From a virus (Duplodnaviria > Heunggongvirae > Uroviricota > Caudoviricetes), in the IMG/VR virus record IMGVR_UViG_3300038393_003162, positions 148,407 to 212,406 of that record: 64,000 nt of DNA. The stretch is one strand, 5' to 3'. Each line of letters starts with the position of its first letter. Positions within the stretch are counted from its first letter, which is position 1. The notes under the pieces are model-generated. The model made no database searches and was not told the origin of the DNA. It saw nothing but the letters and a program-made list of their open reading frames with translations. The position numbers were made by a program, and so were the translations under genes. Below are positions 600-36,323 of the stretch, in pieces.

Positions 600-1463
600 T
601 TATTCACCTTCCTTGATCAGTAGTTTGATATCCTCACAACAGAGATCAAAATTCTTTTCAAAAATCTTTTTTCGCTTCTTATCTTTTGTACAAACCTCTT
701 CGACGGTAGCCGCGCCAGCATGGAGTACAAAACTTCTCGCCGAAATCGCCTGCTTGAACCCATGGCAATGCATTCGACACGCGAATTCCAAATCTTCGTA
801 CCATCCCAATGGATATTCCTTGATTGGACCAAGTCGAGCAAATAACTCACGATGAGCCAACACACAAACAAAAGGCAAAAACATGTCTTGATCAAGAATC
901 TGTTCGATATTATCCGGCAAAATTACCTCATTTTTGACATGATCCCCTCGCTTGCCTTCGACTCGCTTATCACCCAGTGGCGCATTGCTATATCTGGCAC
1001 TCACCATCTTGACATTCTGGTCCCTGAAATCCTGGTAGACCTTCCCGAGTTCGGCAAGCCAAAACCCATTGTCGAACTCCACGTCAGAATTCAAGATGAC
1101 CACCCAAGGACTCTTGGTGGCACCGATGCCGGAATTGATTGCTGCCCCGAAACCGCGCTGCTCCTCATGCCTGATGCAGATAACACTCGGAATTTCTCTT
1201 TTGCTGATCCGGTCCATGAAGTCTTTATTGGGTGAACCATCATCTACCAGGCAAAGATTATAGTAAATGCCCTGCGTCGTATCCCACAATGATTGAATCA
1301 GACGACTCAACCTCTCATACTGCCCATGGAAAGGTACGATCAAGTCCACTTCGGACAAGATCGTCTTATTGGTCAGGGGTGTCCACTTCTCTACCTTGTT
1401 CTCGCGATTCGCCTTGAGCAGGAGCGTCTGCTGCTGTGGTGTGACTTGTGTGATTCTCGGCAT
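600..1463 (-). CDS. glycosyltransferase family 2-like
   Basis: CLVDDGSPNKDF motif (GT2 DDGS); 287 aa ORF. Confidence 0.55.
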   Translation of the reverse strand: MPRITQVTPQQQTLLLKANRENKVEKWTPLTNKTILSEVDLIVPFHGQYERLSRLIQSLWDTTQGIYYNLCLVDDGSPNKDFMDRISKREIPSVICIRHEEQRGFGAAINSGIGATKSPWVVILNSDVEFDNGFWLAELGKVYQDFRDQNVKMVSARYSNAPLGDKRVEGKRGDHVKNEVILPDNIEQILDQDMFLPFVCVLAHRELFARLGPIKEYPLGWYEDLEFACRMHCHGFKQAISARSFVLHAGAATVEEVCTKDKKRKKIFEKNFDLCCEDIKLLIKEGE

Positions 1464-1980
1464 AAACCATTTCTTTCAATGTTTGAGGAGTGATATCTCC
1501 ATGACCAAATAAATGATAAGAAGTACGAGGGTGAGACAGAGAAGATGCCTGTAATAAGACATCCGGCTTTGTCCCCATTTCAATCAACCAGAAATGACAT
1601 CCGGCATTCAAGGTAGAATCTAAATTCAGAGCTCGCGACACGCGGCGATGCCTTGAATTTGACCCGCGATCCGTAAAATAAAGCACATGCTTATTGGCAT
1701 TTTCATCATCAATTCCGAGAACCTTGATCGTCTGTACCAACGATTTTTCGGGATCAATTCGCCGGTCTTCTTGGTACTTGGCAATATCGACAATACTCTC
1801 ACTCAGCCAGCGATTTAGTTCAAGGATTTCGGGACGATAGATGTAAACCTTATTTTCGGTTTCAGCATCCAATCCTTGGACAAAGCTTATGATAATTTTT
1901 TTGAGATGTTCAAGTGTGAAAAAATCGCCGATATCGAATACGAACCCTAGGAGGCTTGGTGTATAGAAAAGGTTTTCCAA
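1366..1980 (-). CDS. hypothetical protein
   Basis: 204 aa ORF overlapping both neighbours at its ends; no motif recognised. Confidence 0.35.
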   Translation of the reverse strand: MENLFYTPSLLGFVFDIGDFFTLEHLKKIIISFVQGLDAETENKVYIYRPEILELNRWLSESIVDIAKYQEDRRIDPEKSLVQTIKVLGIDDENANKHVLYFTDRGSNSRHRRVSRALNLDSTLNAGCHFWLIEMGTKPDVLLQASSLSHPRTSYHLFGHGDITPQTLKEMVYAENHTSHTTAADAPAQGESREQGREVDTPDQ

Positions 1981-2822
1981 TTTCTCTGTCTCTTTCTCCG
2001 CTCACGATAATAATCTCGGAGCGGGTGGTTATAGGTTTTGAGGGGGTGAATAATGCTCGCATCGGGGAATTCAGGGTCGCCATTCGACCCGATCTCCGGT
2101 CTGAATCGCATCGGATAACGCTCGGCATCGCCCGACCAACCGATCTGATCGTTGAAATGAGCAAATTGCTCCACCTTACCTCCCAGATGGACCGCCAATG
2201 TAGGATAAATGATCTCCCCGATATCGTAAGCGCCCTGCTCGTCAAAACCGGGCACGGACTCTTGGAACGGATTGGTCAGATGAAGGAATCTCGTAAAGAA
2301 ATCAATTTCCCGTAGCGATTCCATGAATTTGCGATGGAAAAAGACGCAGCATCCCAGCAAAATGCGAGTTTCTTTCAAAGGACCAACGATCTTCTCCACC
2401 AATGGCAAATCATAGTTAGACCAACGATGGTCATTGCCGATCATCCAGACCCCACGGTGGGCAGCCTCCTCAAGGTCTTCCTTGAAATCTGCCGAGGCAA
2501 TGAGGCAGTCGTACTCGATATAGCAATACCAATCTGCCTTCCACGTTTCTCCCAACGTCTTCAAGCCCAAGGTCAAGTTCCTGTAGGGACTTTTGGACCG
2601 CCCGTGGTAAAACCCTTCGACTTGATATGTCGGCAACATATCAACGAACGGATCGGTCCTGGCAAGCACTTCCGCCTTGCCTCGAATCGACTTGGATTTC
2701 CAATGCGCTGCCCCATCAGTCAAAACCAAGATATTATTGGTCATATACATCTTGATCGAATCGATGGTATCCATGACCACTTGGGAATTGCCATGTACAT
2801 TGAGTAGAGTCGCTATTTCCAT
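1947..2822 (-). CDS. hypothetical protein (291 aa), possibly a glycan-modifying enzyme
   Basis: Long intact ORF inside the glycosylation cluster. Confidence 0.45.
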   Translation of the reverse strand: MEIATLLNVHGNSQVVMDTIDSIKMYMTNNILVLTDGAAHWKSKSIRGKAEVLARTDPFVDMLPTYQVEGFYHGRSKSPYRNLTLGLKTLGETWKADWYCYIEYDCLIASADFKEDLEEAAHRGVWMIGNDHRWSNYDLPLVEKIVGPLKETRILLGCCVFFHRKFMESLREIDFFTRFLHLTNPFQESVPGFDEQGAYDIGEIIYPTLAVHLGGKVEQFAHFNDQIGWSGDAERYPMRFRPEIGSNGDPEFPDASIIHPLKTYNHPLRDYYRERRKRQRNWKTFSIHQAS

Positions 2823-2829
2823 AATATAA

Positions 2830-35061: not shown

Positions 35062-35663
35062 AATCCTTTCATGTCATCGAGCAGCTTCTCGCCAATGCCG
35101 ATATCGACCCAGCGAATGGTCGGCTTCAGGTCCAACAGCTTTTTTATGTACGCGAAGTCCGTCCCTTTGTCGGCATGGTCTGCCCATTTCGCCTGGACCG
35201 CTAGTTGCCTCCTCACACAGAAACACATCGTGTCGATATTGCCGAACTCGATCTGCCTGCTCCTGGGCAATTCCTTGAACCAACTAGCCATATGAGAACA
35301 TCGTACGATCCCTAAGTCATGCTCGCTGGTCGTCGCGTACAAGGTCGCCAGGGCGTGAGGATAGTAAACGTTGTCATCATCCCAAAAGCAGACGTAATCA
35401 CCCCTGACCTCGCTCAGACCGACATCCTTGGCATAGGCTCCCCATCGCCCTTGGACTTCCTTGAAAACCACCCTGTCGATCTGGTCACGGTGATGATGGA
35501 GGATCGGGTCGAAGTCCCTCTTGTCGCCCTCGACCACGACAACCAACTCCGTTTTTAGAGTTCCCTTGGACTGAGACCGATATTGACTGAGGCAGTTGGC
35601 GAGCCACTTGGGACGACTGGAAGGGAGGATCACTGAGAGTTGGGGGATATTCGGCTTTAGCAT
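35058..35663 (-). CDS. glycosyltransferase family 2
   Basis: LSVILPSSRPKWLANCL and FWDDDNVYYPH. Confidence 0.55.
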   Translation of the reverse strand: MLKPNIPQLSVILPSSRPKWLANCLSQYRSQSKGTLKTELVVVVEGDKRDFDPILHHHRDQIDRVVFKEVQGRWGAYAKDVGLSEVRGDYVCFWDDDNVYYPHALATLYATTSEHDLGIVRCSHMASWFKELPRSRQIEFGNIDTMCFCVRRQLAVQAKWADHADKGTDFAYIKKLLDLKPTIRWVDIGIGEKLLDDMKGL

Positions 35664-35741
35664 ATGCCTTAATTAAGTTAAGTGCAATGCAAAAGCCCTA
35701 GAGATATCTCTAGGGCTTTTAAATCTTCGACTACTTGTTTC

Positions 35742-36323
35742 TTAGTAGAGCCTCAACCGTCCAGAGACCCACATGGGCGATTCCTTGCCAAGGAAGCTCT
35801 CCATCTTGTCGGAGTAATCGGGACCGATGGCGACACAGGTGCGAGTCGGGACACCATGAAATTCGGTCAAGCCGCTATCTGTTACCAGGTGGGTCGTTAT
35901 CCCAGCATTCTGCGACTCCTGAACAATCTCCAGGAGATCCGCTTCCGAATTAACCGCCAGGATCACTTTCTTGCGACGGTCTTGGGTACACCACTGATGC
36001 TCAGCATGGGTGTATAACCTGCCGGTGTCGATGATCTCATGGAGAAATCCCGAAACAGCATGCCCTACCTGAGCGCCCATCTTGCCCTTCCGCATATTTA
36101 AGTCATCGCGGACCACAATGACCTGCTTGGTAGGACGCTCGATATCGAGTGCCACTTTACATCTGTTGTGGGAAAGGATGTCACACCTCATGTATTCATC
36201 ATCTTTCCCGGAAGCGATGAATGGCGTGACAAAATCAAGGGTCTCAATGTCGAGACTTTTACTCTCTTCCTGATCTTTGCTAATCCGGTCCATCGGATTG
36301 CCTTTCTGAATTAAAACTGACAA
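35742..36323 (-). CDS. peptidyl-tRNA hydrolase, PTH2 (archaeal/eukaryotic) type
   Basis: VVRDDLNMRKGKMGAQVGHA and VTDSGLTEFHGVPTRTCVAIGP match Pth2 family motifs. Confidence 0.7.
   Translation of the reverse strand: MSVLIQKGNPMDRISKDQEESKSLDIETLDFVTPFIASGKDDEYMRCDILSHNRCKVALDIERPTKQVIVVRDDLNMRKGKMGAQVGHAVSGFLHEIIDTGRLYTHAEHQWCTQDRRKKVILAVNSEADLLEIVQESQNAGITTHLVTDSGLTEFHGVPTRTCVAIGPDYSDKMESFLGKESPMWVSGRLRLY

Follow-up and report, generated by a model that had tools for sequence, protein, structure and literature searches.

The locus described here is best explained as a cytoplasmic, phage-autonomous glycosylation system that acts on phage proteins, presumably including the acceptor proposed below, and we give this reading a probability of about one half. 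At its left end lies a conserved core that is new here, made up of a Cys-module protein, a GT2 glycosyltransferase (GT), a ~190-aa protein, a GT-A enzyme (the g1947 family) and a CHPW-family methyltransferase (MT), and this phage has an unusually expanded version of it. The initial annotation left the choice between virion glycosylation and host-surface remodelling open. Soluble enzymes, missing priming and export genes, and the Cys-module protein beside the core GT2 lean, short of proof, towards a phage-protein acceptor.

The window, by which we mean the whole 64,000-nucleotide stretch analysed, derives from a huge phage of ~585 kb; a contig of 585,064 bp carries its proteins. Beyond glycan genes it contains a 24-tRNA array, Thg1, RlaP and HNH genes, and the closest public relatives are curated huge phages of 595 kb and 635 kb. 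The glycan locus is phage-borne and not a host island, because the CHPW MT family is nearly absent from cellular genomes (3 true matches among 185,579 species genomes, all on MAG contigs), because the gene order of the core recurs in related huge phages, in curated complete genomes as well as many IMG/VR contigs, and because identical proteins stand in the same order on independent assemblies (the 585-kb JGI contig and, from other runs, Logan contigs of 140 kb and 49 kb). The concern that the region might be a misassembled host island thus fails. Phage genes border the cluster at either side. Metagenomes contain at least 574 members of the MT family, many of them on phage contigs of 200-640 kb, and the g1947 and g13357 families are found in metagenomes only, on contigs of up to 668 kb.

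The dense glycan block spans positions 84-21036 (Table 1). Between 21 and 36 kb, glycan genes occur interspersed with unrelated genes (a trypsin-like protease, RlaP, HNH and SPFH), so the 36-kb supercluster originally proposed survives as this dense block and not as a contiguous unit. Its left end had been under-read, with 84-530(-) and 1366-1980(-) missed or insufficiently appreciated. The inventory comprises ~15 soluble GTs (GT2, GT8/24-like, other GT-A types and one GT-B), several of them called below threshold or at motif level only (families B/B', 8485, 18721 and 34006), together with three canonical MTs and one degenerate one, one sulfotransferase, Glf, a PseB/FnlA-type dehydratase, a P-loop kinase-like protein and a PaaK/CapK-like ligase. 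Profile searches bear out the earlier calls of glf, a PseB/CapD dehydratase, the sulfotransferase at 7730-8488, GT2, GT8 and GT-B (GT1/GT4-like) enzymes, and a CapK-like adenylating enzyme, now placed at 32562-34028. The inferred chemistry, a virus-made methylated, sulfated, Galf-containing glycan with an added 6-deoxy-HexNAc-type precursor, matches these enzyme families.

Table 1. Features of the glycan locus (positions in the window).
Position	Strand	Assignment	Evidence
84..530	-	Cys-module protein, 148 aa	N-terminal FRCLKS motif; C-terminal module ..VTC..LC..AYIAAVTVCMQSL up to the stop
600..1463	-	Core GT2, left boundary enzyme of cluster	Pfam Glycos_transf_2 1.3e-16
1366..1980	-	Conserved ~190-aa protein, true start probably downstream of 1980	Absent from public gene call (483-bp gap there)
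1947..2822	-	GT-A-fold GT, huge-phage-specific family	AF2 pLDDT 93.4; no Pfam domain; 118 metagenomic homologs
2830..3732	+	CHPW-family MT paralog 1, possibly inactive	Degenerate SAM-binding motifs (LVFHCGPG, GYN); Methyltransf_23 0.0045, below cutoff
3729..4622	+	CHPW-family class I SAM MT paralog 2	Methyltransf_23 4.9e-14
4624..5517	-	Glycosyltransferase (PHROG family)	phrog_4447 1.4e-9; homolog in L019
5514..6113	-	P-loop kinase-like protein	Walker A GMSCVGKT; weak AAA_18 and guanylate-kinase PHROG matches
6044..6931	-	GT-B type GT, GT1/GT4-like C-terminal domain	Glyco_trans_1_2 1.1e-13
6975..7733	+	GT2	Glycos_transf_2 9.6e-9
7730..8488	+	Sulfotransferase, PAPS-dependent type	Sulfotransfer_3 4.4e-12, Stf0 3.3e-9, Sulfotransfer_1 6.2e-9, all above cutoff
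8485..9153	+	GT-A-like protein	GT2 9e-5 (22.9 bits, just below 23.3 cutoff); NTP_transf_3 2e-4
9201..10088	-	GT family A, LDSDR motif	Paralog 19476-20318 matches Glyco_transf_7C above cutoff
10140..10439	-	Small protein, 99 aa	In public gene calls; no family match
10436..11299	-	Probable GT-A, family B, PLDxD motif	Glyco_tranf_2_3 sub-threshold; paralog of 16942-17787
11221..12159	-	CHPW-family MT paralog 3	Methyltransf_23 4.4e-13
12150..13103	-	Soluble extended SDR, Polysacc_synt_2 type (PseB/FnlA/CapD-like nucleotide-sugar 4,6-dehydratase)	Pfam 1.6e-43
13357..14190	-	GT-A, GT8/GT24-like retaining-type fold, family C	AF2 pLDDT 88.4; invariant DND
14202..15113	+	CHPW-family MT paralog 4	Methyltransf_23 1.1e-14
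15116..16252	-	UDP-galactopyranose mutase (Glf)	Pfam GLF 2.6e-70; NCBIfam equivalog 347.9 bits > 303.75 cutoff
16284..16949	+	No assigned family	Sole feature N-terminal RRSGHH motif
16942..17787	-	Probable GT-A, family B'	GT2 4e-4, sub-threshold; paralog of 10436-11299
17728..18738	+	No assigned family	Homolog adjoins family C genes in L021
18721..19476	-	Possible GT8-like GT-A, motif level only	YLDTDIIL, NCGIIW, NQDEH by sequence reading
19476..20318	-	GT family A'	Glyco_transf_7C 1.1e-6, above cutoff; paralog of 9201-10088
20308..21036	+	GT8/24-like, family C'	hhalign vs family C profile E 6e-69; paralog of 13357-14190
23858..24694	-	GT8, outlying	Glyco_transf_8 1.2e-5, above cutoff
28335..29885	+	GT8-like N-terminal domain, C-terminal domain without assignment, outlying	GT8 0.0022, sub-threshold
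32562..34028	-	PaaK/CapK-like adenylate-forming ligase, outlying	TSGSTGAP motif; 205 homologs
34006..35061	-	Possible GT8-like GT-A, motif level only	IYADSDLF, DNAGLF, IQDEM; homolog in L012
35058..35663	-	GT2, outlying	Glycos_transf_2 2e-11

Some of these assignments call for comment. The SDR matches NCBIfam PseB at 2.4e-34, far under the equivalog cutoff, and the ligase, which drew no Pfam match, finds phenylacetate-CoA ligases in the PDB with its family profile (4r1l at 6e-9, 9s3l at 1.4e-7). We find no support for 16284-16949, the weaker sulfotransferase-like candidate of the initial annotation, as a sulfotransferase; it gave no Pfam match at E<=5, no relevant PDB match and only E 0.29 in BLASTP against 7730-8488. 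Neither 17728-18738 (Pfam, PHROG, NCBIfam, PDB) nor 18721-19476 (Pfam, PHROG, PDB) has a statistically supported match. The P-loop gene and the GT-A-like gene 8485-9153 belong to the syntenic core, with orthologs in the same four related loci (L015, L019, L036, L038), those of the latter being 43-47% identical. The sulfotransferase is also found in the close relative L054, and homologs of 28335-29885 adjoin an MT in L012, L033 and L035.

The Cys-module protein is the element of the core that bears most directly on the acceptor. It lies 69 bp downstream of the core GT2 on the same strand, carries a ~100-aa Thr-rich insert (GSTTTTTYTLTNT) between its N-terminal motif and C-terminal module, is 66% identical to a 150-aa homolog in L054, and gave no match in Pfam or PDB searches. 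Its family is sharply delimited: across 21,993 ORF segments the HMM gives 22 matches at E<=1e-9 and then a gap to E>=0.26. In most loci the module is a peptide of 47-60 aa with four conserved Cys that directly adjoins the GT2. Among 43 loci selected by the peptide motif alone, 28 have a GT2 within ~450 bp, upstream and on the same strand in 26 of the 28, and 20 of the 43 have an MT within 4 kb. In other phages the module forms the C-terminus of repeat-rich, Cys-rich proteins of 151-716 aa; an annotation search returned nothing for these, and from their repeat motifs we would guess that they are virion fibres. We regard 84-530 as a candidate for the protein that the core GT2 glycosylates or works with, although it could instead serve as a partner or regulator of that enzyme and not as its substrate.

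The remaining core members show similar persistence. The core GT2 has weak NCBIfam similarity to the mycofactocin glycosyltransferase MftF, and its orthologs adjoin the MT in most related loci. The 1366-1980 product, without a match in Pfam, is 42.5% identical (E 4e-59) to its 184-aa counterpart in L054, whose gene occupies the corresponding place, and weakly conserved counterparts lie between GT2 and g1947/MT in L011, L013, L018, L038 and L043. The model of 1947-2822 finds chondroitin synthase CHSY3/CHPF, BoGT6a and SpsA as best PDB matches in Foldseek (E 1.5e-8, TM ~0.5). Pfam annotation of 143 MT neighbours in 26 related loci gave GT2 (12), sulfotransferases (4) and Glyco_transf_7C (3), as well as GT8, epimerases, RGP mutases and a DegT aminotransferase; a glycan theme is general in these huge phages.

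The duplicated character of the locus was claimed at the outset, and the paralogies are real. In all-vs-all BLASTP of the window ORFs, the four MTs share 30-39% identity (E 7e-27 to 5e-70); none of them departs from the C-terminal motif CHPW..S..NKA..H, which also marks the family in 23 MTs of related phages. As methyltransferases, three are canonical and 2830-3732 is degenerate. The three GT pairs likewise align strongly (A, 36%, E 4e-51; B, 39%, E 1e-60; C, 33%, E 1e-39), each with an invariant DxD motif (LDSDR, PLDxD and DND), and hhalign brings family B onto family A at E 1.6e-4, DxD on DxD. The family C model (13357-14190) best matches UGGT, LARGE1, LgtC and glycogenin in Foldseek (E 4e-7, TM ~0.53). 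The public gene call for 20308-21036 is shortened to 20518-21036. Outside these families, within-window BLASTP matches are confined to one HNH gene pair in the tRNA region.

A DNA-level comparison found no residual nucleotide similarity between paralogs, and in NJ trees, which carry no support values, every paralog clusters with orthologs from other phages and not with its in-genome partner; the relatives L019 and L021 have both paralog types. Taken together, these observations indicate that the duplications are ancient and older than the divergence of these phage lineages. Segmental duplication and divergence therefore holds for the families, and not as a series of events in this genome, since the duplications are shared with related phages.

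We suggest that during infection the enzymes would draw on host nucleotide sugars, SAM and PAPS, with UDP-Galf and a 4-keto-6-deoxy-HexNAc derivative supplied by the phage itself. In the cytoplasm they would assemble, directly on phage proteins, an oligo- or polysaccharide that is methylated, sulfated and contains Galf; neither a lipid carrier nor an export step would be involved. The most likely acceptors would be the Cys-module protein and virion-surface or fibre-like proteins with the same C-terminal module, and the virion would end up coated with glycan. No TM segment is predicted in any protein from 600 to 30000. Across 46 kb we found neither a priming transferase nor a flippase, polymerase, ligase or transporter. 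The 10 kb that precede the window carry no annotation for additional glycan or export families, and neither they nor the window contain a recognisable capsid or tail gene.

We considered whether the enzymes might instead remodel the host envelope, which we regard as rather improbable. Soluble phage GTs, MTs and the sulfotransferase would modify undecaprenyl-PP-linked LPS, CPS or EPS intermediates of the host at the cytoplasmic face of the membrane, and host flippases or ABC transporters would export the altered glycan, changing the surface so that, for example, superinfection is blocked or re-adsorption of progeny prevented. Soluble GTs are usual in such pathways, and since the GTs that use undecaprenyl-PP-linked intermediates are soluble or peripheral too, TM-free enzymes are still compatible with host priming and export. 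O-antigen and capsule loci typically encode GT2/GT8 enzymes, Glf and PseB/FnlA-type dehydratases, there are weak NCBIfam similarities to PglI, WcaA and EpsD, and chain length in ABC-dependent O-antigen synthesis is controlled by terminal methylation. The 13 GTs of cyanomyovirus S-SCSM2R were read by its authors as host-envelope remodelling (PMC12801897). However, priming and export genes are missing not only from the 46 kb but also from the commonest neighbour families of the 26 related loci (Wzx, Wzy and ABC families are not among the top 25), and the core enzymes are phage-specific and near-absent from cellular genomes. Nor does this alternative give a role to the small phage protein with which the core GT2 is so tightly paired. 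Because the core persists across phages of only 30-50% identity from different habitats, we favour a phage-intrinsic target, which fits such conservation better than hypervariable host surface glycans.

That same pairing could mean that the Cys-module peptide is itself the end product, a glycocin-like RiPP. The adjacent GT2 would glycosylate it, the remaining enzymes would elaborate and methylate it, and lysis would release it to act as a toxin, as a signal or by blocking receptors. The glycocin sublancin is prophage-encoded, and the similarity of the GT2 to MftF, though weak, points the same way. The minimal pairing of a four-Cys peptide with a GT matches that of SunA/SunS and other glycocins (PMC8620827). 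We nevertheless find this doubtful. No double-glycine leader, C39-peptidase ABC transporter, thiol-disulfide oxidoreductase or immunity gene was found in the window or among MT-neighbour families, the Cys spacing differs from the nested CX6C...CX6C pattern of glycocins, and solved glycocins show no sequence similarity to the module. Moreover, proteins of 400-700 aa end in the same module, as would suit a protein domain better than a RiPP core.

It is very unlikely that the GTs place sugars, decorated with methyl and sulfate groups, on hydroxymethylated phage bases as a defence against restriction or CRISPR. Phage DNA glycosylation with diverse glycans is on record (Pyle et al., 2024, as cited in PMC12619734), and the GT/MT pair of minimal relatives lies among nucleic-acid genes (RlaP, HNH, ligases); yet ~15 GTs with a sulfotransferase, Glf and an adenylating ligase go far beyond any known DNA glycan pathway, no gene for hydroxymethyl-pyrimidine synthesis was seen in the window or flanks, and the GT2-peptide pairing is left unexplained. 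Misassembly of a bacterial polysaccharide island onto phage sequence, to which a GC content of 0.41-0.44 at 14-22 kb, slightly below the rest of the window, and the ordinary bacterial relatives of Glf and the SDR might point, is effectively refuted by the independent assemblies, phage flanks, synteny and cellular near-absence described above.

The glycan coat that glycosylation of phage proteins would place on the virion can be likened to the fibril glycans of giant viruses and the capsid glycans of mycobacteriophages. Mycobacteriophage glycans occur on capsid and tail tube (as cited in PMC12619734), and the glycosylation clusters of Megavirinae comprise 6-33 genes, including methyltransferases and sugar-sulfation enzymes (PMC10117803).

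The glycan genes of the window are organized around a conserved core: a small protein with a conserved Cys-containing C-terminal segment (the Cys module), a GT2 glycosyltransferase, the gene g1366, a GT-A glycosyltransferase, and a methyltransferase with a C-terminal CHPW motif (CHPW-MT). Together with further genes, this core forms a phage-specific, soluble, multi-enzyme glycan pathway that includes ancient paralog families. Window proteins occur, residue for residue identical, on a 585,064-bp JGI metagenome contig and, in independent Logan assemblies of other sequencing runs, on contigs of 140 kb and 49 kb. 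A megablast search with 50 kb of the window gave no nucleotide-level relative among 50,697 phage records. Relatives are detectable at the protein level only, and by this measure two genomes of uncultured huge phages, 635 kb and 595 kb long, are the nearest public ones; the 595-kb relative, SR-VP_PHAGE_COMPLETE_CIR-CU-CL_42_23, is a curated and circularised genome from vernal-pool mud (PMC7162821). For the CHPW-MT family we counted at least 574 members, every one from metagenomes and many from contigs of 200-640 kb. When a single genome was scanned for each of 185,579 bacterial and archaeal species, only three true relatives emerged, all on MAG contigs, one of which (546 kb) is probably a mis-binned phage. 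The families of the genes at 1947 and 13357 (g1947 and g13357) consist of metagenome-only 'hypothetical proteins' on contigs of up to 668 kb. The 10 kb adjoining the window upstream are free of glycan genes and contain CsrA, ParB, FolD and small unknown genes. The 585-kb phage contig, the independent assemblies, the synteny with curated huge phages and the near-absence of these families from cellular genomes place the cluster in a viral genome. A host polysaccharide island on a misassembled contig, the caveat attached to the initial annotation, is not borne out, since the families are phage-restricted and recur on independent assemblies; misassembly is effectively excluded.

About 15 glycosyltransferases are clustered here with a Glf enzyme, an SDR dehydratase, three or four methyltransferases and a sulfotransferase. 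Among the enzyme classes proposed initially, the sulfotransferase and Glf hold up on their profile scores, whereas a second, weaker sulfotransferase candidate at 16284-16949 has no statistical support and is rejected. The supposed PseB/CapD dehydratase does belong to the Polysacc_synt_2 / extended-SDR superfamily, but not to PseB itself: it scores 118.8 bits against a cutoff of 407.75, and 74 against 730 for the FnlA equivalog, so that it is PseB/FnlA-like but far below either cutoff. The CapK-like enzyme could be located at 32562-34028, where the adenylation motif [ST]SG[ST]TG is present as TSGSTGAP at residue 124. A profile of this family (28/205 homologs) matches PaaK phenylacetate-CoA ligases (E 6e-9 and 1.4e-7), and because there is no Pfam AMP-binding match we regard the protein as a divergent PaaK/CapK-like (ANL) member. 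Armadillo-repeat matches from a single-sequence search proved spurious, and the PaaK link required the family profile.

Enzymes of the glycan cluster and RNA-related proteins near it, by window position
Positions	Assignment	Basis
600-1463, 6975-7733, 35058-35663	GT2	Pfam/NCBIfam
4624-5517	glycosyltransferase	PHROG glycosyltransferase family
6044-6931	GT-B C-terminal domain	Pfam/NCBIfam
19476-20318	Glyco_transf_7C	Pfam/NCBIfam
23858-24694	GT8	Pfam/NCBIfam
18721-19476, 34006-35061	GT8-like motif triad only	motif reading
28335-29885	GT8-like motif triad	triad plus sub-threshold GT8, E 0.0022
7730-8488	sulfotransferase, PAPS-dependent type	Pfam sulfotransferase domain above gathering score
12150-13103	extended-SDR dehydratase	Polysacc_synt_2
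15116-16252	Glf	TIGR00031, 347.9 bits (equivalog cutoff 303.75); Pfam GLF 2.6e-70; NAD_binding_8 (FAD-binding N-terminus)
2830-3732, 3729-4622, 11221-12159, 14202-15113	CHPW-MT paralogs	BLASTP
22911-23936	RlaP nucleotidyltransferase	
37570-39192	Ro/TROVE-like RNA-binding protein	phrog_850
52788-53636	Thg1	

Two glycosyltransferase families that lack a Pfam domain could be assigned through structure prediction. AlphaFold2 models built on alignments of metagenomic homologs give a GT-A fold both for 13357-14190 (pLDDT 88; closest by Foldseek to the GT24/GT8 enzymes UGGT, LARGE1, LgtC and glycogenin) and for 1947-2822 (pLDDT 93; closest to chondroitin synthase, GT6 and SpsA). Profile searches of the PDB with these two families, the family of the gene at 10436 and the Cys module gave no sequence-level match, and a fold was reached for the first two only. 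The 10436 family has only sub-threshold GT2 matches, and its profile aligns with that of the 9201/19476 family over the DxD region (E 1.6e-4).

For the methyltransferases, we took two features as marks of a class I SAM-dependent enzyme: a motif I of the form (D/E)xGxGxG and an acidic residue closing strand 2. The copies starting at 3729, 11221 and 14202 carry both (LDFGCGxG and GYD) and score above the Pfam cutoff. The copy at 2830 falls below threshold and is the only one of 23 family members from related phages to have lost the SAM-binding consensus, reading LVFHCGPG for LDFGCGxG, GYN for GYD and HDSLEY for YDVLDH; with these substitutions, this paralog is possibly non-catalytic. Sequence matches in the PDB, to UbiG-like methyltransferases, cover the Rossmann core only and not the C-terminal CHPW region.

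All-vs-all BLASTP of the window ORFs recovers the paralogies listed in the initial annotation, adding only an unrelated HNH pair from the tRNA region. The four methyltransferases share 30-39% identity (E 7e-27 to 5e-70) and an invariant CHPW motif, which across the 23 members reads R-C-H-P-W-[CTS]-S-[RK]-H-[GA]-x-H-L-Y. The three glycosyltransferase pairs, 9201/19476 (A/A', E 4e-51), 10436/16942 (B/B', E 1e-60) and 13357/20308 (C/C', E 1e-39), keep their DxD motifs invariant, and single-sequence hhalign of all ORFs against all others linked no unknown ORF to these families beyond the BLASTP paralogs. The residual DNA repeats that might have accompanied segmental duplication were not found by self-BLASTN, which detects no nucleotide repeat in the cluster and only short palindromes and tRNA similarities; recent segmental duplication is therefore rejected. 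In neighbor-joining trees, built without support values, the window paralogs group with orthologs from other phages and not with their in-genome partners. Together with the lack of nucleotide repeats, this grouping shows the paralogy to be ancient and shared. This phage stands out by how far the set has expanded and by the addition of Glf, the SDR dehydratase and the sulfotransferase. The GC content dips to 0.41-0.44 at 14000-22000, compared with 0.45-0.55 elsewhere, over Glf and the second paralog set (16942-21036), and this sub-block might have a separate acquisition history.

The cluster had been described as a 36-kb supercluster. A dense glycan block, in which genes abut or overlap, does extend from 84 to 21036, but it is not contiguous to 36 kb: between 21 and 36 kb the glycan-type genes (23858, 28335, 32562, 34006 and 35058) are mixed with a trypsin-like protease, RlaP, an HNH endonuclease, an SPFH protein and unknowns. 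Homologs of these outlying genes adjoin the methyltransferase in other phages. At the end of the dense block, the public gene call shortens the GT8/24-like paralog to 20518-21036, while homology reaches an ATG at 20308; with that start, the divergent genes 20308-21036(+) and 19476-20318(-) overlap by 11 nt at their 5' ends, leaving no intergenic promoter space. Scanning for sigma-70 promoters and terminators gave no useful information. Palindromes of 29-54 nt, perfect or nearly so, are found between genes at 13-61, 22742-22792, 27343-27371 and 35691-35720, one directly past the stop of 84-530 and another between 35058-35663 and 35742-36323; a role as terminators or regulatory hairpins is probable.

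As encoded, the pathway is entirely soluble. A hydropathy scan found no transmembrane segment in the proteins from 600 to 30000. The window and the 10 kb upstream contain no Pfam family of WecA/WbaP-type initiating transferases, and no Wzx, Wzy, ABC exporter, chain-length or export protein.

In its right half, the window carries 24 tRNA genes, every one of them on the minus strand, and also encodes a Thg1-type tRNA-His guanylyltransferase, a Ro-like RNA-binding protein and HNH endonucleases. The proximity of RlaP, the Ro/TROVE-like protein and Thg1 to the tRNA array suggests that an RNA repair and tRNA maintenance module flanks the glycan cluster. The array (40337-63822) is interleaved with small ORFs, HNH endonucleases and Thg1, and includes two tRNAs to which ARAGORN assigns 4-base anticodons (46027-46103 and 47070-47152) and a 110-nt Rfam tRNA missing from the ARAGORN list (58237-58346). 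A 61-nt direct repeat with 87% identity (51437-51497 and 51963-52023) flanks ORF 51486-51887 beside tRNA-Glu genes. Closer to the glycan genes, the seemingly non-coding stretch 36320-37200, in which Rfam finds nothing, contains two minus-strand tRNA genes (36512-36647 and 36720-36860) with an insert of ~65 nt in the anticodon loop, found by ARAGORN only when introns are allowed, and a third, uncalled tRNA-like T-arm at ~36920-37050. One of the split tRNAs is called tRNA-Cys(GCA) and the other has the anticodon UUA, which would make it a UAA suppressor, although anticodon assignment is uncertain here; a tie to stop-codon recoding in huge phages is possible.

We scanned IMG/VR with the methyltransferase alignment, which gave 38 loci, and compared the window proteins with these by tblastn. 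In its minimal form, which is also the arrangement in the 595-kb curated phage, GT2 and/or g1947 adjoins one methyltransferase, followed by RlaP, HNH and a homolog of gene 35742 in the window order. Four syntenic loci (L015, L019, L036 and L038) show an intermediate form, with GT2, g1947, a methyltransferase, a P-loop protein, gene 8485, A, B, a methyltransferase, C and a methyltransferase; the second-set paralogs A' and C' appear as neighbors in L019, L029 and L021. The close relative L054 (66% identity) shares with the window the sulfotransferase, the GT-B enzyme and the tandem methyltransferases, one of which is the degenerate copy. Its cluster also contains an SGNH/GDSL gene at 6564-7283 (Lipase_GDSL_2 2.5e-8), which may encode a glycan O-acetyl esterase or transferase; the window has no gene at that place, and close relatives thus differ by gene-by-gene turnover. 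The glycan theme is general around the methyltransferase in these phages. Pfam searches of 143 neighboring proteins from 26 loci identify GT2 (12), sulfotransferases (4), further methyltransferases (4), Glyco_transf_7C (3), GT8 (2), epimerases (2), RGP mutases (2), a DegT aminotransferase and a carbamoyltransferase, and no transporter, flippase or polymerase is among the 25 commonest families. The core gene g1366 (1366-1980, minus strand), between GT2 and g1947, was missed by public annotation, where it resembles a 483-bp gap, and has an equally placed counterpart in a close relative (E 4e-59). Its overlap of ~98 nt with the annotated GT2 start makes it probable that one of these two genes has been given the wrong start codon.

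The Cys-module protein is encoded on the minus strand at 84-530, downstream of the core GT2. It has 148 residues counted from M11, 23% of which are Ser or Thr, with a GSTTTTTYTLTNT run. The last 40 residues are also conserved in related loci, where small ORFs occupy the corresponding position. An HMM of the module separates sharply in 21,993 stop-to-stop segments (1.03 Mb of loci), with 22 matches at E<=1e-9, four loci outside the training set among them, and the next at E>=0.26. A second IMG/VR scan, anchored on the peptide motif alone, gave 43 loci; a g600-type GT2 (the family of the core enzyme) lies within ~450 bp of the peptide in 28 of these, upstream on the same strand in 26 of the 28, and a CHPW-MT lies within 4 kb in 20 of the 43. 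Most copies have 47-60 residues, M[RK]C[KR]K..G.Y.T..W.YFYP.C....LC.....A[YW]V[AP]A[IV]TVCxQRL[FY] up to the stop codon, and four conserved Cys spaced ~C-X18-C-X6-9-C-X13-C. In 12 of 38 unique cases the module is instead the C-terminus of a protein of 151-716 residues; the longest carriers (420-716 residues) have no adjacent GT2 match. By our reading of their motifs, the large carriers have RCC1-like or other beta-propeller-like repeats and extra cysteines, and they look like modular fibre or surface proteins. They comprise proteins of 684-716 residues in L077, L082, L091 and L094, tandem genes for 420 and 426 residues in L092, and further examples in L087 and L088, with repeats of the form DGK..VGG.F...RLN.DG..D..F or WGxNxxGQLGDG (RCC1-like) and a Cys-rich linker, K[ST]CS..GC. 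Neither Pfam nor the PDB contains a match to the module, and searches of INPHARED (tblastn) and the PDB gave no annotated relative of the large carriers.

These observations can be drawn together in a tentative model, to which we give a probability of roughly one in four. The ~45-residue module (..C..W.YFYP.C...LC....A[YW]V[AP]A[IV]TVCxQRL[FY], ending at the stop codon) would be a previously undescribed, huge-phage-specific glyco-acceptor or glycan-anchoring domain. The core of GT2, GT-A enzyme and CHPW-MT would either install a methylated glycan on it or build a glycan that it binds. Phages would deploy the module free (50 aa) or at the C-terminus of beta-propeller / Ig-like fibre proteins, giving a modular, glycan-based virion surface, and in the present phage the core would have expanded to a ~30-gene pathway for a sulfated, methylated, Galf-containing glycan. 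The broader reading, which we hold to be about as likely as not, is that glycan assembly would take place in the cytoplasm with phage proteins as acceptors, the module-bearing ones being the most plausible, to yield a methylated, sulfated, Galf-containing virion glycan. We infer a phage-protein acceptor because lipid-carrier and export steps are lacking, because the pairing of GT2 and module is tight and the larger carriers are Cys-rich and repeat-rich, and because there are precedents in giant viruses (PMC10117803) and in mycobacteriophages (cited in PMC12619734). In addition, a core kept across very divergent phages fits a phage-intrinsic target better than variable host glycans.

This last point bears on a less likely alternative, in which the products remodel the host surface by means of host priming and export machinery. 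Such a role has been proposed for cyanomyoviruses: S-SCSM2R has 13 glycosyltransferases among 22 cell-wall synthesis/modification genes, possibly the highest number in a marine phage (PMC12801897), and S-SCSM2R, S-SCSM1 and P-SSM2 resemble the present phage in combining many glycosyltransferases with sugar epimerases in a big genome. Their sets, however, hold LPS/KDO and export-related genes, differ in gene families, and have no reported CHPW-MT / Cys-module core. Bacterial O-antigen and capsule loci share GT2, GT8, Glf, a PseB/FnlA/CapD-type dehydratase, a CapK-like ligase and methyltransferases with our cluster, which, unlike them, lacks priming, flipping, polymerising and exporting parts and is phage-borne, with phage-restricted families.

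That the product is a released, glycocin-like glycopeptide seems to us improbable. Glycocin clusters (sunA/sunS, gccF/gccA, enfA49/enfC) place a small Cys-containing peptide gene beside a GT2-family glycosyltransferase (PMC8620827), as do 84-530 and 600-1463. The other defining components are absent here: the peptides begin directly with M[RK]C[KR]K and have no double-glycine leader, we found no C39-peptidase ABC transporter, immunity gene or thiol-disulfide oxidoreductase gene, and the Cys spacing differs from the paired CX6C of nested glycocin disulfides. In contrast to glycocins, moreover, the module is also a domain of large proteins and is accompanied by many extra glycosyltransferases and methyltransferases. 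DNA hypermodification we consider very improbable. Neither 5-hydroxymethyl pyrimidine synthesis nor a dedicated DNA glycosyltransferase was seen in the window and the 10 kb upstream, out of a genome of 585 kb.

The virion-glycan reading has implications for huge-phage biology. A glycan coating the virion would bear on adsorption, avoidance of inactivation and environmental persistence, and the pairing of GT2 and Cys module offers a concrete and cheap experimental handle on the acceptor. The analysis also names previously unannotated families: the CHPW methyltransferases, the g1947 and g13357 GT-A families, the Cys module and the g1366 family. The huge-phage papers that we text-searched do not describe the cluster or the module: one has no glycosyl or methyltransferase terms, and another lists glycosyltransferase only among the most abundant structural clusters. 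Titles and abstracts listed by literature searches gave nothing relevant either.

Virus-encoded, host-independent glycosylation is well documented in giant viruses of eukaryotes; among phages, to our knowledge, it is known only from small mycobacteriophage systems. Virus-encoded glycosylation clusters are thus not new as such; what is new here is a huge-phage version that has enzyme families of its own, a repertoire of unusual size and a candidate for a dedicated acceptor domain. In mycobacteriophages of the Che8/Corndog/Myrna type (Freeman et al. 2023, as cited in PMC12619734), glycosyltransferases act in the cytoplasm on structural proteins to form a virion glycan shield. Those systems comprise only a handful of genes, and their acceptors are known, lying at the C-termini of capsid and tail-tube proteins, whereas here there are ~30 genes, a sulfotransferase and Glf, and no structural gene in view.

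Megavirinae glycosylation clusters comprise 6-33 genes, vary between clades, and include class I SAM methyltransferases and sugar-sulfation enzymes (PMC10117803). Like the systems for Megavirinae fibril and chlorovirus capsid glycans, the present cluster combines many soluble glycosyltransferases with nucleotide-sugar and sugar-modifying enzymes, and the giant-virus clusters function independently of membrane export. Sequence-level orthology to giant-virus enzymes was not found, the g1947 model having only generic GT-A neighbors in BFVD (TM 0.4-0.5). The CHPW-MT family and the Cys-module protein have no counterpart described for giant-virus clusters, and, unlike those systems, the present one belongs to a tailed huge phage with a bacterial host and has only a candidate acceptor. 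Huge phages thus own a conserved glycosylation core that is able to grow to Mimivirus-like complexity, including sulfation and multiple methylations. If the module is indeed the acceptor, bacterial viruses would possess in this system a counterpart to the fibril glycosylation of giant viruses, one that has its own acceptor domain.
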